From Sphingobacterium thalpophilum (GTDB taxonomy: Bacteria > Pseudomonadota > Gammaproteobacteria > Burkholderiales > Burkholderiaceae_C), in NCBI GenBank assembly GCA_943369045.1, contig CALRME020000001.1, positions 1-34,722 on the forward strand: a DNA stretch of 34,722 nt, given 5' to 3'. The notes under the pieces are model-generated. The model did no database searches, was not told where the DNA came from, and saw nothing but the letters and a program-made list of their open reading frames with translations. The translations under genes and the position numbers were made by a program. Positions 20,712 to 31,180 of this stretch are shown one piece after another. Each line of letters opens with the position of its first letter. Positions within the stretch are counted from its first letter, which is position 1.

Positions 20712-23582
20712 TTGAGCAAATCTTCATCGGCCAAGCGCGGCAAATTCTGGCGAACCGACTGGTTCGTCGGGGTGCTGATCGTGCTTGCGGTCGTCATCCT
20801 GCACCAGTCCACGGACCTCATCGGTACGCTCGAGCGTCGCTTCTACGATTACGCCAGCACCAGCAGCGGGCGCCAGCCGTCTGACCGCATTGCGGTCATT
20901 GCCATTGATGACCAGAGCATTGCCAATATTGGCCGCTGGCCCTGGCCGCGCGACGTGCACGCCCAGCTGATTGACCAGCTTGCCGCAGCCAAAGCCAAGA
21001 CGATCGTTCATACCGCGTTTTTCTTTGAGCCGCAGACCGACCGTGGCCTGGTGTTCATCCGCAAGATGAAGGAAGCGCTGGGGCCCGCTGCGGATGCGGG
21101 CCAGGGCGGCGTGGGCGAGCAGCTGGGCAAGGTGATCGCCGAGGCCGAGCAGGCGCTCGACACCGACGCCAAGCTTGCTGCCAGCATGGCCAAGGCCGGC
21201 AACGTGGTCATCCCTTCTGTCTTTGTGCTGGGCGAACCGCAGGGCAAGCCTGACAAGCCGTTGCCGTCCTATGCCCTCAAGAGTGCCATCGATGAGGACA
21301 AGGGTTTTTCGGTCCCGGCCATCCGGGGCCAGCAGCCGATCGAGAACATTGGCACGGCGGCCGCAGGAATTGGGCACCTGAACCAGCTCAATGATGTCGA
21401 TGGCGCGGTTCGCGAAGAGCCAATGCTGGTCAATTACTACGGCAAGGCCGTGCCGTCGATGGCGCTGCTGGCGGCCTACAAGAGCCTGAACCTGGGGCCA
21501 TCGGACGTCAAGCTCAACACCGGCGAGTCGGTGCAGATCGGAAAGCTGCGGGTCAAGACCGACGAGATCGCGCGCATGCTGCCGCAGTTCTACAAGGGCC
21601 GCGACGGGAAGCCGCCATTCCAGATTGACTCTTTTTACGATGTGCTCAGCGGCAAGATCCCGGCGGGCAAATACGCTGACAAGATCGTTGTGATTGGTGC
21701 CACCGCTGCGGGCGTCGGCACGCAATTTCCCGCGCCCGGCTATGCCGCGATTTCGCCTGCGGAGATGATCGCCCACATCACCTCAAGTATCCTGGGTGAG
21801 CATTTCATCGTTCAGCCTGGCTGGGGCGTCTGGGCTGCGCTCGGCTTGTTCCTGCTGGTGGCGGCTTACCTGATCGCTGCCTTGCCACGCCTGTCGGCCG
21901 GCAAGGCGGGCATCGTGACCGCCCTGGCCTTTGTGCTGCTACTGGGAACCGAGTTCGGTTTGCTGGCAGGCGCTGCCCTCTGGCTCAAACTGGTTTTTCC
22001 TGCGACGCTGCTGGTGATTGGCCATCTGGCGCTTACTACCAAGCGCTTCCTGGTGACTGAAGCGGGCAAGCTCAAGTCTGATGAAGAATCCGCAGAAACC
22101 AACCGCATGATGGGTCTGGCCCTGCAGGGCCAGGGCCAGCTGGACATGTCCTTTGACCGATTCCGCCGTGTTCCGATGAGCGACGCGGTCATGGACAACT
22201 TGTATAACCTCGCACTCGATTTTGAGCGCAAGCGGCAATTCAACAAGGCTCAGGCCGTGTATGAGCACATGGCGGGCTACAACAAGGATTACAAGGACCT
22301 GCAAACCAAGCTCAATCGCGCCAAGAACCTGTCGGAAACGGTGATTCTGGGCGGTGGCGGGGCTCACCCCGGTGGAACGATGCTGCTCGACGGCGGAGCC
22401 GTCGAGAAACCCATGCTTGGGCGCTACCAGGTCGAAAAAGAACTGGGCAAGGGCGCGATGGGCGTGGTTTATCTCGGAAAGGACCCGAAGATCGGCCGCG
22501 TCGTGGCCATCAAGACCATGGCCCTTAGCCAGGAGTTTGAAGGCGAAGAACTCACGGACGCGCGCGAGCGCTTCTTCCGCGAGGCGGAAACAGCGGGCCG
22601 CCTTCAACACCAGAACATCGTCACGATCTTCGACGCCGGTGAAGAGCATGACCTGGCGTATATCGCCATGGAGTTCCTCAAGGGCAAGGACCTGGTTGAT
22701 TTCTGCAAGGATGGCCAGTTGTTGCCGATGCCCAAGGTGCTTTCGATCGTGGCCAGGGTGGCCGAAGCCCTGGCGTATGCCCACAAGCAGAGCGTGGTGC
22801 ACCGCGACATCAAGCCCGCGAACATCATGTACGAGTTCGAAAGCGATACCGTCAAGGTGACCGACTTCGGCATCGCCCGGATCACCGACTCAAGCAAGAC
22901 CAAGACGGGCCTGGTTCTGGGCACACCCAGCTTCATGTCCCCCGAGCAGATCGCCGGCAAGAAGGTTGATGGGCGCTCTGATCTCTATTCCCTGGGCGTC
23001 ATGCTGTTCCAGATGCTCACGGGCGTGCTGCCGTTCCGCGGGGACTCCATGGCGGAGCTGATGTACAAGATCGCCAACGAGGAAGCCCCGGACATCCGGA
23101 TTGTCCGCAAGGAGATTCCAGAACGGCTCGCTCAAGTCGTGGCACTGTCGATGGCCAAGAAATCCGAGGCCAGGTACCAGGATGGCGACCAGTTTGCTGC
23201 CGACCTTCGCGCGGCGCTTGGCGACAGTGCGGTGGCTGCGACCGTCGTCCAGGCGGCACCGATCGGGGCGTCCGGCGCAGGGTCCTCCGGAACGGCAGCT
23301 TCCGAAAAGACGGTGGTCATGGCCGCCACACCGGAAGGCGGCGGGGGGGGGGATTCCGAGAAAACGGTGGTGATGGCGGCCTCGGCGCCTGCAGCTGCGG
23401 CATCGTTTGAAGCGACCGTGGTTGGCGTCATCCCCCCTGCGGATACCCAGCCCAGCTATGATGCGACCCAGAAAATGGATGCCAGCGATACCGACGTCTT
23501 TGCGAAGACCGCTGTGATCAGGCGGCCGGACAATTCCGGCGCCGCCCCTTCCGGGGACGGGAAAACCGATCTGGAGGCCTAG
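20712..23582 (+). CDS. CHASE2-domain membrane Ser/Thr protein kinase (CHASE2 - 3 TM - TPR-like - Hanks kinase - disordered Thr-motif tail)
   Basis: IAIDDQS..IGRWPWPR and DVDGAVR (CHASE2); LGKGAMGVVY, VAIK, HRDIKPAN, DFGIAR, GTPSFMSPEQ. TTG start at 20712 is inferred (ORF open from 20652). Confidence 0.94.
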   Translation: MSKSSSAKRGKFWRTDWFVGVLIVLAVVILHQSTDLIGTLERRFYDYASTSSGRQPSDRIAVIAIDDQSIANIGRWPWPRDVHAQLIDQLAAAKAKTIVHTAFFFEPQTDRGLVFIRKMKEALGPAADAGQGGVGEQLGKVIAEAEQALDTDAKLAASMAKAGNVVIPSVFVLGEPQGKPDKPLPSYALKSAIDEDKGFSVPAIRGQQPIENIGTAAAGIGHLNQLNDVDGAVREEPMLVNYYGKAVPSMALLAAYKSLNLGPSDVKLNTGESVQIGKLRVKTDEIARMLPQFYKGRDGKPPFQIDSFYDVLSGKIPAGKYADKIVVIGATAAGVGTQFPAPGYAAISPAEMIAHITSSILGEHFIVQPGWGVWAALGLFLLVAAYLIAALPRLSAGKAGIVTALAFVLLLGTEFGLLAGAALWLKLVFPATLLVIGHLALTTKRFLVTEAGKLKSDEESAETNRMMGLALQGQGQLDMSFDRFRRVPMSDAVMDNLYNLALDFERKRQFNKAQAVYEHMAGYNKDYKDLQTKLNRAKNLSETVILGGGGAHPGGTMLLDGGAVEKPMLGRYQVEKELGKGAMGVVYLGKDPKIGRVVAIKTMALSQEFEGEELTDARERFFREAETAGRLQHQNIVTIFDAGEEHDLAYIAMEFLKGKDLVDFCKDGQLLPMPKVLSIVARVAEALAYAHKQSVVHRDIKPANIMYEFESDTVKVTDFGIARITDSSKTKTGLVLGTPSFMSPEQIAGKKVDGRSDLYSLGVMLFQMLTGVLPFRGDSMAELMYKIANEEAPDIRIVRKEIPERLAQVVALSMAKKSEARYQDGDQFAADLRAALGDSAVAATVVQAAPIGASGAGSSGTAASEKTVVMAATPEGGGGGDSEKTVVMAASAPAAAASFEATVVGVIPPADTQPSYDATQKMDASDTDVFAKTAVIRRPDNSGAAPSGDGKTDLEA

Positions 23583-23593
23583 TCCGCGCCAAT

Positions 23594-24379
23594 ATGAATT
23601 ACGAGTTTTGCATTCGCACTGATCCCGGTCTCGCCCGCGAGAACAACGAGGATTCAGTCACGATCGACGAGCCCACGAGGCTCGGAATACTGGCCGATGG
23701 CATGGGTGGCTACAACGCCGGCGAAATCGCCAGCGGGATGGCAACGACATTCATCAAGTCAGAGCTTGGCCGCTGGTTGTCCCAGGCCGGGCGCCATGCG
23801 AACGCGCGCGAAGTGCGGCGAGCCATGGAAATTTGTGTCGACAACGCAAACAGGTCGATCTTCAATGCCGCAAACTCCAATCCCCAGTACAGCGGCATGG
23901 GGACCACGTTGGTCATCGGCGTTTTCCAGGATTCACGCCTCATGCTTGGGCATATCGGGGATTCGCGTTGCTACCGCCTGAGAGGCACCGAGTTCGCCCA
24001 GATATCAAAAGATCATTCGCTGCTCCAGGAGCAGATGGATGCGGGCCTGATTACGCCGGAGCAGGCGGCTACTTCCACCAACAAGAACCTCGTAACCCGC
24101 GCACTGGGCGTGGAAGATGCGGTGCTTCTTGAGGTCAACGAGCATCGCGTAGAGCCGGGCGATATTTTCCTGATGTGTTCTGATGGACTGTCTGACATGG
24201 TCGATGACGCGAACATCGCGAAGATTCTTGAAAACGAGATCCCGCTTGAGCAGAAGTCTGTCCAGTTGATCGAGGCCGCGAACGCCAACGGAGGCCGCGA
24301 CAATATCTCGGTACTTCTGGCGCAGGCGGCGAGCGGCTCGAACAAGCGTGGGCTGATTTCCAGATTGCTGGGAAAATGA
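23594..24379 (+). CDS. PP2C-family Ser/Thr phosphatase (Stp1/IreP-like)
   Basis: RENNED, LADGMGG, GMGTT, HIGDSR, TRALG, CSDGL, GGRDNIS. Confidence 0.96.
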   Translation: MNYEFCIRTDPGLARENNEDSVTIDEPTRLGILADGMGGYNAGEIASGMATTFIKSELGRWLSQAGRHANAREVRRAMEICVDNANRSIFNAANSNPQYSGMGTTLVIGVFQDSRLMLGHIGDSRCYRLRGTEFAQISKDHSLLQEQMDAGLITPEQAATSTNKNLVTRALGVEDAVLLEVNEHRVEPGDIFLMCSDGLSDMVDDANIAKILENEIPLEQKSVQLIEAANANGGRDNISVLLAQAASGSNKRGLISRLLGK

Positions 24380-24425
24380 CCTTTCGTACCATTTTGCAAA
24401 ACAAGTTCAGAAACAGGAGCCGACC

Positions 24426-30610: not shown

Positions 30611-30719
30611 CGGCCACTTACGGACAAAAATGTCATCGCCTGGCCAATGTGAAACCCAAATTTGCCATCCGGGGGCTTGATTTCCGGCACAAACGCACGA
30701 TTTGGGCGCATTCGACGAT

Positions 30720-30735
30720 TGGCACGGAATCTGCT
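30720..30735 (+). promoter_or_regulatory. Sigma54 (-24/-12) promoter of the pilin gene
   Basis: TGGCAC-GGAAT-CTGCT with correct GG/GC spacing, about 40 bp upstream of the pilin ATG. Confidence 0.8.
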
Positions 30736-30772
30736 CAATGTCATGACCCCATTTTTTACAGAGGAGTCTTTT

Positions 30773-31180
30773 ATGAAGCGTTCTATCCAGAAGGGTTTTA
30801 CCCTGATCGAACTGATGATCGTGGTTGCGATTATCGGTATCTTGGCTGCCGTCGCCCTGCCGGCCTACCAAGACTACACCGTGCGCGCCAAGGTGTCTGA
30901 ACTGATGCTGGCGGCTTCGTCTGCCAAGACGGCTGTGTCCGAAGCCGCTGCGACCCTGAGCGCACTTCCCGCGTCCACCAGCGTCACCGTGCAAACGCAG
31001 GCCTCCAAGTACGTGGCCAGCGTGGGCTGGGATGGCTCCAGCGTCATCGCGACCGCCCAAGGCGACGCCAACATCACGGGCAGCAACATTTACATGAGCG
31101 GCTCCTACGCTTCCGGTCAGGTCACCTGGACTTGCGGTGGCACGGTTCTGCAAAAGTACCGTCCCGCCAGCTGCCGTTAA
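30773..31180 (+). CDS. pilA: Type IVa major pilin
   Basis: [35 protein letters not shown] prepilin cleavage site with E5; C-terminal disulfide loop WTC...PASCR; GAGGAG RBS. Confidence 0.97.

Follow-up and report, generated by a model that had tools for sequence, protein, structure and literature searches.

In Pseudomonas aeruginosa, the class III membrane cyclase CyaB belongs to the Pil-Chp/CyaB/cyclic AMP (cAMP)/Vfr pathway, and control of type IV pili by cAMP is known mainly via transcription factors. Sets of a membrane Ser/Thr kinase, a PP2C phosphatase and an FHA protein are represented by PpkA/PppA/Fha1 of type VI secretion systems (T6SS). Here, we describe a locus in which such signaling genes stand directly upstream of the pilin gene pilA. 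The window, i.e., the whole stretch of 34,722 nucleotides that was analyzed, comprises positions 1 to 34,722 of contig CALRME020000001.1 from assembly GCA_943369045.1 (3.18 Mb, 506 contigs, 74% complete), which is named Sphingobacterium thalpophilum and placed by GTDB in the Burkholderiales (Burkholderiaceae_C). According to Pfam matches, six genes on the plus strand, for a kinase, a PP2C, an FHA adaptor, an adenylyl cyclase, a cyclic-nucleotide phosphodiesterase (PDE) and a PilB/GspE-family ATPase with a GAF domain, lie between terC and pilA-pglL. Judging from gene content and order, motifs, conservation and the pattern of gain and loss, from which activities, ligand binding, phosphorylation and pilus phenotype are predicted throughout, we see roughly even chances that this cassette, linked to the pilin gene, combines an optional accessory motor gated by cAMP with a phosphothreonine adaptor switch that is retained more broadly. 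The six genes would be one near-complete copy of a signaling cassette that occurs widely across the host family in a patchily eroded state and would tune type IV pili posttranslationally via two partly independent arms, not via a single line into one motor.

As in P. aeruginosa, a class III membrane cyclase is tied to type IV pili in this locus. There, the output is transcriptional, whereas here the cyclase has a CHASE2 sensor, a class II PDE is present, and the linked cAMP readers show no match to a DNA-binding domain. The membrane kinase, the PP2C and the FHA protein with its own candidate phosphothreonine are likewise reminiscent of the T6SS proteins and of DgcB and OdhI/GarA. However, the adaptor reached only 38.2 bits with the TagH/VI_FHA model (cut-off, 120.25 bits), no T6SS genes were seen, and the flanks are terC and pilA. 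Unlike in the T6SS set and the known FHA switches, the output here would be a second FHA-like domain that is phospho-blind, and the genes are linked to pilA.

Direct gating of pilus motors by a second messenger has been described for cyclic di-GMP (c-di-GMP). Like the window ATPase, MshE of Vibrio cholerae is a PilB/GspE-family motor with an N-terminal second-messenger sensor, MshEN (PMC5013675). The window ATPase differs from MshE in that it lacks the 24-residue c-di-GMP motif, has a GAF domain similar to that of CyaB2, falls into a separate clade and has no platform gene alongside. Residues contacting adenine in the GAF domains of Anabaena CyaB2 and of PDE2/5/6/10 (1ykd; PMC4411481) are also present in the window GAF, but the latter is single, is fused to a motor ATPase rather than to a cyclase or PDE, and has an altered NKFDE motif. 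In Sulfolobus, Aap pili and twitching depend on PP2A and on ArnA, an FHA protein (bioRxiv 10.64898/2026.08.11.744115). The ArnA/ArnB/PP2A system of archaellum and Aap pili is, however, archaeal, uses PP2A instead of PP2C and a vWA partner, has no cAMP arm, and corresponds to the present system only by likeness. Clusters of a receptor cyclase, a PDE and a Crp-like reader (cyaD1-spdA-clr) in Sinorhizobium meliloti (PMC4222275) and of CHASE2-cyclase/PDE/FecR/TPR genes in Campylobacterota (PMC9239204) have been described; in these, the reader is Crp-like or absent, and there is neither a kinase-PP2C-FHA set nor a pilus ATPase.

In R. tataouinensis, Rta_37350 was annotated in 2011 as "sensor, GAF domain; PilB" and "pilB or gspE ?"; it lies beside the pilA gene Rta_37340, and pilBCD are located elsewhere (PMC3164672 Table S4). 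Compared by annotation, Rta_37350 is very probably the orthologue of the window GAF-ATPase. It stands as an annotation alone, and the signaling genes are not mentioned in the passages and supplements of PMC3164672 that were searched. PMC2877116 only lists CHASE2 as occurring on kinases, and PMC13622651 describes an unrelated FHA pathway. No study of the block was found in the literature covered, which leaves out most subscription journals. The block is real, conserved and apparently unstudied; an earlier note on this DNA had allowed for its being conserved and unstudied. A cAMP-type GAF domain fused to an assembly ATPase beside a cyclase and a PDE makes direct action of cAMP on a motor testable, and natural variants without ATPase, cyclase or kinase offer ready comparisons. 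Moreover, the PP2C and the tandem-FHA adaptor stand next to pilA in most members of this large soil, freshwater and plant-associated family, and they hint at a common, unstudied phosphothreonine input to pili.

Conservation of the six-gene block and its link to pilA

The gene order is kinase-PP2C-FHA-cyclase-PDE-ATPase, with intergenic gaps of 11, 46, 48, 3 and -4 bases (9 instead of 3 between cyclase and PDE if the second ATG of the PDE is used). The terC gene is separated from the kinase gene by 230 bases, and the ATPase gene from pilA by 162 bases. The spacing suggests that the six genes are cotranscribed. The co-oriented, tightly spaced arrangement between terC and pilA-pglL that the earlier note had reported was confirmed by Pfam and the gaps, and its assignment of the products to kinase/PP2C/FHA and cyclase/PDE/GAF-ATPase families held, with the catalytic motifs intact.

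A homologue search yielded 4893 matches among 7997 scored candidates; among the 120 matches listed, only generic names were found. The closest named relatives of the ATPase were from Ramlibacter (87-90% identity), followed by Rhodoferax, Polaromonas and Caenimonas, which makes a Ramlibacter-like bacterium of the Comamonadaceae the probable host. Of 603 confirmed relatives, 80 loci were fetched, 63 of which had enough upstream DNA. All five upstream genes accompanied the ATPase gene in 39 of these 63 loci, which shows that the order is not due to chance, and usually a pilin gene followed; the recurrence of this neighborhood, which the earlier note had named as a check, was found. Environmental isolates with all six genes include Ramlibacter albus GTP1 (L037), Rhodoferax saidenbachensis BE308 (L038) and Polaromonas sp. 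CF318 (L060). PP2C and FHA genes were present in 62 of the 63 loci, the kinase in 49, the PDE in 46 and the cyclase in 44. A PP2C-FHA-ATPase core, which the 62 loci would imply, was rejected as an artifact of searching with the ATPase as seed. Three loci (L063, L084 and L096) are titled Synechococcus, Asaia and Bordetella, yet they group with Polaromonas-like or other betaproteobacterial rows, and their labels look wrong.

When the host family was sampled evenly (one draw of 200 genomes, with match thresholds that differ by gene), the ATPase turned out to be the least conserved cassette member. The FHA gene was matched in 175 genomes at an E value of ≤1e-30, a count to which a paralogue type of 46% identity may contribute (at ≤2e-60, 148 genomes), the PDE in 147, the cyclase in 75 and the GAF-ATPase in 40, so that the latter was missing from 160 of the 200. 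The cyclase was detected in 32 of the 40 ATPase carriers versus 43 of the 160 ATPase-less genomes, an association whose P value is inflated by relatedness among the genomes and by the joint loss of neighboring genes. The dependence between ATPase and cyclase is one-sided. For cyclase versus PDE, an independent-pair test was not significant.

As a control, the 8 kb behind sucD was analyzed in 20 of 32 queried genomes chosen as lacking an ATPase orthologue (one of them, G291, has a divergent GAF-ATPase elsewhere). Five of these loci read PP2C-FHA-pilA, one FHA-pilA, two kinase-PP2C-FHA-PDE-pilA and one PP2C-FHA-cyclase-pilA; two contained terC only, and five continued beyond the fetched 8 kb. 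Upon extension, four of the latter five read kinase-PP2C-FHA-cyclase-PDE-pilA with the ATPase cleanly absent (L179-L182), and this ATPase-free five-gene block with pilA includes a 100% complete genome of the host's genus. The fifth read FHA-cyclase-PDE and had no pilin. For a further set, which is biased toward close FHA orthologues, we took the first 40 ATPase-less genomes for which an FHA position was listed (40 genus codes). In these 40 ATPase-less loci, PP2C was present in 40, PDE in 34, kinase in 26 and cyclase in 15. No decay of catalytic residues was detected in the cyclase, PDE, kinase, PP2C or FHA proteins after ATPase loss. We conclude that the cassette can do without the ATPase more readily than without any other part and that the enzymes stay intact in its absence. 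Since ATPase-less genomes keep cassette parts, the cassette likely acts on pili via other partners too.

These results bear on the circuit originally proposed for this locus, in which both CHASE2 sensors converge on the GAF-ATPase, with cAMP acting via the GAF domain and phosphothreonine via binding of the FHA protein to the ATPase. The contiguity of the six genes in 39 of 63 loci and the retention of PP2C-FHA with the ATPase in 62, including those that have lost cyclase and PDE, fit such a convergence, and the fullest cassettes of other families contain the ATPase, which may therefore be the ancestral output. We nevertheless consider it improbable: most of the 160 ATPase-less genomes retain FHA and PDE, the ATPase was cleanly lost in L179-L182 beside intact enzymes, PDE-ATPase pairs without FHA occur in L118 and L119, and a conserved [DE]-x-T-x-hydrophobic site is lacking from the ATPase outside its GAF core. 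The analysis provided no evidence for the phospho arm acting on the ATPase. Thus, the view of a self-contained, dedicated circuit of two complete sets feeding the ATPase was not supported. Of the posttranslational pilus control circuit, the conserved pilin-linked block stood, while its dedication to a single ATPase was borne out only in part. On the kinase, the CHASE2 sensor is dispensable, since 21 of the 26 kinases in ATPase-less loci showed no CHASE2 match (5 carry CHASE2).

The link to the pilin gene was scored in 55 ATPase loci with at least 5 kb of downstream DNA: pilA lay within 500 bp in 26 and within 5 kb in 38. In the ATPase-less set, a pilin gene was found at most 500 bp from the last cassette gene in 27 of 40 loci, or in 25 of 38 if only those with 1 kb or more of downstream DNA are counted. 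Of the 10 loci that belong to other families, 8 had a pilin gene within approximately 10 kb (on the opposite strand in one), and 1 had sucD directly upstream. Furthermore, in L185, fha and pilA are together, 11 kb apart from sucD-terC. We read this as a cassette-pilin unit that is probably older than the link to sucD, a direction of change suggested by an unrooted comparison.

Several observations speak against a functional link to pili. No pilin was present within the flank in 14 of the 55 ATPase loci, and the pilin motif was not seen in 16 of 16 loci of distant GAF-ATPases (L120-L135). Upstream of the ATPase-bearing cassettes, sucD was found in 56 and an adjacent terC in 46 of the 63 loci, and in the ATPase-less set sucD (35 of 40) and terC (32 of 40) were as tightly linked as pilA (27-30 of 40). 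In addition, 4 of the 20 control loci read sucD-(terC)-pilA without any cassette gene. Part of the pilin link may therefore be inherited synteny. In the extreme, a general cAMP/phosphothreonine hub would have come to lie between sucCD-terC and pilA by chance, and the ATPase would be a type II secretion motor or a nonmotor regulator; its equal distance from PilB and GspE, the gspF-type genes of the host genome and the distant GAF-ATPases behind pdxJ-acpS without a pilin would agree with this. We regard such an inherited neighborhood as unlikely, since other families keep the pilin link beyond the sucD link, a PilB-family motor directly before pilA would be an unlikely coincidence, and the ATPase motifs are conserved.

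The GAF-ATPase and the cAMP arm

In the cassette reading, the CHASE2 cyclase would make cAMP on a periplasmic cue, and the class II PDE would remove it. cAMP would bind the GAF domain of the accessory PilB-like ATPase and turn it on or off at a shared type IVa machine encoded elsewhere. The cyclase contains the class III residues, namely, metal-binding D503/D547, adenine-type K543/T617, and N624/R628 (numbering from GTG 25131), and its closest solved relatives are adenylate cyclases, including CyaB (3r5g). The PDE scored 56.5 bits with PF02112 (cut-off, 23.7 bits), has the HxHxDH motif and further putative metal ligands, and is most similar to yeast PDE1 (4ojv) among solved structures. The sites were intact in 72 of 72 aligned cyclase and 97 of 97 aligned PDE homologues; in these checks and in those of the kinase, PP2C and FHA proteins below, the catalytic and binding roles are the ones that we take the residues to have.

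The ATPase matched the superfamily model PF00437 (E value, 1.8e-110), as expected for a member, and contains the Walker A (GPTGSGKT), Asp box, Walker B (VGESRD) and His box motifs. Its Zn site has four Cys residues, the first knuckle being CxC in the host family and CxxC in most other families. With 462.9 bits for PilB (TIGR02538; cut-off, 675.65) and 434 bits for GspE (TIGR02533; cut-off, 630.25), it stayed under both cut-offs, and it is roughly equally similar to the solved PilF, PilB and GspE. An AlphaFold model (pTM, 0.45) repeated the similarity to GspE/PilB/PilF and to the GAF domain of 4mcw in Foldseek. When 54 ATPase cores were placed in a quick maximum-likelihood tree, the GAF-ATPases formed their own clade (SH-aLRT, 100), with six GAF-less relatives nested inside, separate from pilC-linked PilB (L137-L139), gspD-linked GspE (L142/L149/L150), MshE-like proteins and a second orphan group; long-branch joins were flagged deeper in the tree. 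No platform gene was detected beside the GAF-ATPase in the loci examined. A canonical PilB above the TIGR02538 cut-off was encoded elsewhere in three of three Burkholderiales-order carriers tested, and it was not found in the window's own, incomplete assembly.

In the region corresponding to MshEN, the window ATPase reads KYDGLVADGVLTADELQQCIQRA, which does not match the c-di-GMP motif RLGxx(LVI)(LVI)xxG(LVI)(LVI)xxxxLxxxLxxQ (PMC5013675). The motif was lost in every GAF-bearing row, and an RLG-like start was kept by several GAF-less relatives. In line with this loss, gating by cAMP via the GAF domain may replace the c-di-GMP gating of MshE/PilB relatives. The best solved relative of the GAF domain was the cAMP-binding tandem GAF of CyaB2 (E value, 3.6e-27). 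The ligand contacts of CyaB2 GAF-B are R291, T293, I308, D356 and N359 (PMC4411481), with which R73, T75, L90, D145 and S148 of the window GAF align, S148 replacing N359. Of 63 loci judged, two frameshifted or truncated rows were dropped; R73, T75 and D145 were invariant in the remaining 61 of 61, and R73 and D145 also in 27 of 27 distant loci. A cAMP-type GAF on a PilB/GspE-family ATPase, in the earlier note a GAF-bearing PilB-like ATPase, was thereby supported.

A cAMP-gated pilus motor is called into question by the following findings. The NKFDE motif of the GAF domain is altered: N174 and F181 are invariant, K is shifted by one, E185 stands for D, and the final E is absent. In 19 loci without a cyclase, the GAF pocket had not changed (divergence ratio, 2.84 vs 3.13), and four of five cyclase-less genomes with a GAF-ATPase yielded no full-length cyclase orthologue; from the absence of pocket decay together with the missing orthologues, it follows that the GAF domain may read another pool or another ligand. 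A PDE adjacent to a cyclase need not cleave 3',5'-cAMP, as SpdA acts on 2',3'-cAMP (PMC4222275). Finally, the ATPase tree is compatible with a pilus and a type II secretion platform alike.

In a draw across the phylum, the region comprising GAF and the MshEN-like N1 was matched in 33 of 400 other genomes. The distant GAF-ATPases among these are approximately 41% identical to that of the window; they are encoded behind pdxJ-acpS, in many cases with GAF-HD-GYP or CHASE2 genes nearby in the opposite orientation. Directly behind two of them, a GAF-MshEN protein without an ATPase domain is encoded (L131:2417-3739 and L132:2385-3770), possibly a regulatory half copy. The divergent GAF-ATPase of L136 (7985-10656) has no N1 region and a metallo-beta-lactamase-fold gene directly upstream; it is located far from sucD-fha-pilA of its own genome.

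Further readers may share the cAMP pool. In larger cassettes of other families of the order, a GAF-HD-GYP gene follows the ATPase gene (L096-L103 and L117); in L096, L097 and L099, a gene for a cNMP-rhodanese protein stands in front of the ATPase gene. A cAMP-activated GAF-HD-GYP protein is known in Thermosynechococcus (bioRxiv 10.1101/2021.11.05.467447). The host genome has 14 cNMP-domain matches, among them a sensor-only cNMP-binding protein of 211 amino acids encoded between pilT and pilU (L006:3445-4080, contig C286). Homologues of the latter were found in 71 of the 200 family genomes, and the best 29 were all located between pilT and pilU. Against its inclusion in the cassette pathway, this gene did not covary with the cyclase (P = 0.36), the PDE (P = 0.24) or the ATPase (P = 1.0).

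Alternatively, cAMP from the cassette could, as in P. aeruginosa, drive pilA and further pilus genes by activating a Crp/Vfr-like regulator, with the GAF-ATPase as a side branch. The 14 cNMP-domain matches would provide candidates, the cyclase and PDE genes persist directly upstream of pilA in the absence of the ATPase, and the 162-bp gap before pilA leaves space for a promoter of its own. However, no cassette examined contained a regulator gene, and none of the linked readers (GAF-ATPase, GAF-HD-GYP, cNMP-rhodanese and the protein encoded between pilT and pilU) matched a DNA-binding domain. A transcriptional route is therefore quite improbable in our view. As a tentative extension of the cassette reading, which we rate as possible but short of even chances, type IVa pili would be controlled in this manner across the order: cAMP would gate a separate clade of extension ATPases via GAF, the kinase/PP2C/tandem-FHA module would act on the core machine, and the retraction motors may be included via the cNMP protein encoded between pilT and pilU.

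The kinase, the PP2C and the FHA adaptor

The kinase reading frame is open from GTG 20652. The protein is composed of a transmembrane segment, a periplasmic CHASE2 domain, three transmembrane-like segments, weakly TPR-like helices (TPR_12; E value, 0.006), the kinase domain and a low-complexity tail. According to hydropathy, one N-terminal and three C-terminal hydrophobic segments flank the sensor in both CHASE2 proteins. The Hanks-type residues are present (VAIK Lys, alpha-C Glu, HRD..N and DFG, in the motifs VAIK, HRDIKPAN, DFG and SPE), and the catalytic residues were intact in 80 of 80 aligned homologues. The PP2C has the metal-binding Asp residues of its family, and its sites were intact in 112 of 114 homologues, the remaining two rows being unaligned.

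The repeats in the kinase tail are predicted to be autophosphorylation and FHA docking sites. The motif F/Y-[ED]-K-T-V-V, a consensus shared with the linker motif of the FHA adaptor (see below), occurred 57 times in 35 homologous tails versus 3.3 ± 1.8 times (maximum, 10) in 1000 shuffles, a 17-fold enrichment for a pattern that was chosen after looking at the data and in tails that are related. In the cyclase-less loci L017, L018, L031 and L042, the kinases are approximately 100-150 residues shorter, and a juxtamembrane SETV motif and the tail repeats are lost.

The first FHA domain of the adaptor has the phosphothreonine-reading residues G26-R27, S41-x-x-H44 and N63-G64, which were intact in 116 of 116 loci. 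The second FHA-like domain reads G-K at the corresponding site, has no SxxH, and is phospho-blind; it is a weak FHA match (E value, 0.01) with 18 invariant columns in 24 diverse rows, and an Atlas search with it led to unnamed or FHA clusters. An AlphaFold model showed two beta domains and disordered residues 100-133. The best Foldseek matches were DgcB FHA (top), GarA and OdhI. A tandem-FHA paralogue (46%) is encoded outside the cassette at L003:5799-6401 (contig C179), with FHETAAF in the linker.

In our proposal, autophosphorylation of the kinase at the E-K-T-V-V repeats of its tail would recruit the FHA adaptor, and the kinase would likely phosphorylate Thr104 in the adaptor linker. The FHA domain would bind phospho-Thr104, in cis or between copies, and thereby expose or hide the phospho-blind second domain; the PP2C would reset the switch. 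DgcB of Bdellovibrio switches by a self-derived phosphopeptide (PMC6733907). Thr104 follows the first FHA domain after only approximately 10 residues, which may favor binding between copies over binding in cis. The second domain would bind a partner found in most family genomes, which would probably not, or not only, be the GAF-ATPase.

A FEKTMVI-type motif was present in 48 of 48 scored kinase-bearing ATPase loci (one more was unscored due to an assembly gap). In kinase-less ATPase loci, the linker Thr was lost in 9 of 13 and kept in 4; the strict pattern failed in 10, one of which (L021) reads FEKTMRV. In the ATPase-less set, the motif was detected in 23 of 26 kinase-bearing versus 5 of 14 kinase-less loci. 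The losses correspond to five separate tree branches, each of them kinase-less. L033 keeps the motif, and its kinase is encoded elsewhere in the genome (56%, full length). No kinase orthologue was found in the genomes of L028 and L030, which keep the motif, nor in seven genomes without it; nine of these ten searched genomes are metagenome-assembled-type records, which may be incomplete. Two results tell against a coupling of kinase and Thr104: the association was not significant after phylogenetic pairing (P = 0.125 to 0.5), owing to too few losses (five branches), and the ATPase-less set contains exceptions to the rule in 3 of 26 and 5 of 14 loci.

The Foldseek matches to GarA and to OdhI bound to 2-oxoglutarate dehydrogenase, together with the upstream sucD (in 56 of 63 ATPase and 35 of 40 ATPase-less loci), could also point to a metabolic switch, in which the adaptor would regulate enzymes of the tricarboxylic acid cycle; this would account for its place behind sucCD. 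We consider such an OdhI/GarA-like role very improbable. The adaptor scored 62.8 with the OdhI model NF041660 (cut-off, 200), and the structural matches reflect the common FHA fold. Furthermore, a single one of the 10 loci in other families has sucD directly upstream, and fha of L185 has moved with pilA, not with sucD.

Feature coordinates and neighboring genes

The upstream anchor consists of two open reading frames (ORFs) that, from their translation, we take to be sucC-sucD. Downstream, a ribosome-binding site precedes the pilA start codon. A scan gave 3 promoter-like and 17 terminator-like sites, which is the level of shuffled sequences, and the promoter scan was not used.

Table 1. Positions of the cassette, its sequence features and its neighbors in the window
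Feature	Position	Strand	Basis or detail
sucC-sucD (presumed), succinyl-CoA synthetase, upstream locus anchor	17459..19566	+	ORFs
terC / YjbE-family membrane protein	19795..20481	+	PF03741, TIGR03717 above cut-off
Membrane Ser/Thr kinase, CHASE2 + Hanks domain	20712..23582	+	PF05226, PF00069
Kinase tail, repeated [DE]-x-T-x-hydrophobic	23301..23519	+	SEKTVVM twice, FEATVVG, YDATQKM, FAKTAVI
PP2C (Stp1-type) Ser/Thr phosphatase	23594..24379	+	NF033484, 247.8 bits vs cut-off 230
FHA adaptor, two domains + disordered linker	24426..25094	+	PF00498, residues 23-86
Linker motif with Thr104, predicted kinase substrate	24726..24746	+	FEKTMVI
CHASE2 class III adenylyl cyclase	25143..27392	+	PF05226, PF00211
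Class II cyclic-nucleotide PDE, metallo-beta-lactamase fold	27396..28193	+	PF02112, HSHLDH
GAF - MshEN-like N1 - PilB/GspE-family ATPase	28190..30610	+	GAF+MshEN+T2SSE (Pfam)
cAMP-type GAF domain of ATPase	28349..28789	+	CyaB2 contact match
MshEN-fold region of ATPase, c-di-GMP motif lost	28838..29260	+	KYD for RLG, A for Q
pilA, type IVa major pilin	ATG 30773..31180	+	PF00114, PF07963
Intrinsic terminator-like hairpin after pilA	31197..31224	+	12 pairs plus T tail
pglL, pilin O-oligosaccharyltransferase	31242..32978	+	PF15864, PF04932, PF11846

A second solitary pilA is located on contig C164 (L001:678-1085); its protein is 97% identical to that of the window pilA, and its neighbors are unrelated. 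A third pilin, encoded on contig C17, is 41% identical to the window pilin. Behind pglL, an ORF of 96 amino acids without a Pfam match (window 32989-33279) recurs near pilA in many related loci. It is followed by a gene with TPR and glycosyltransferase family 41 domains (window 33291-34722), which is cut by the contig end; similar genes come after the cassette in L100 and L101. Farther upstream, the window encodes a type IA topoisomerase whose C-terminal part carries a SWIB/MDM2 domain (6372-9329, minus strand).

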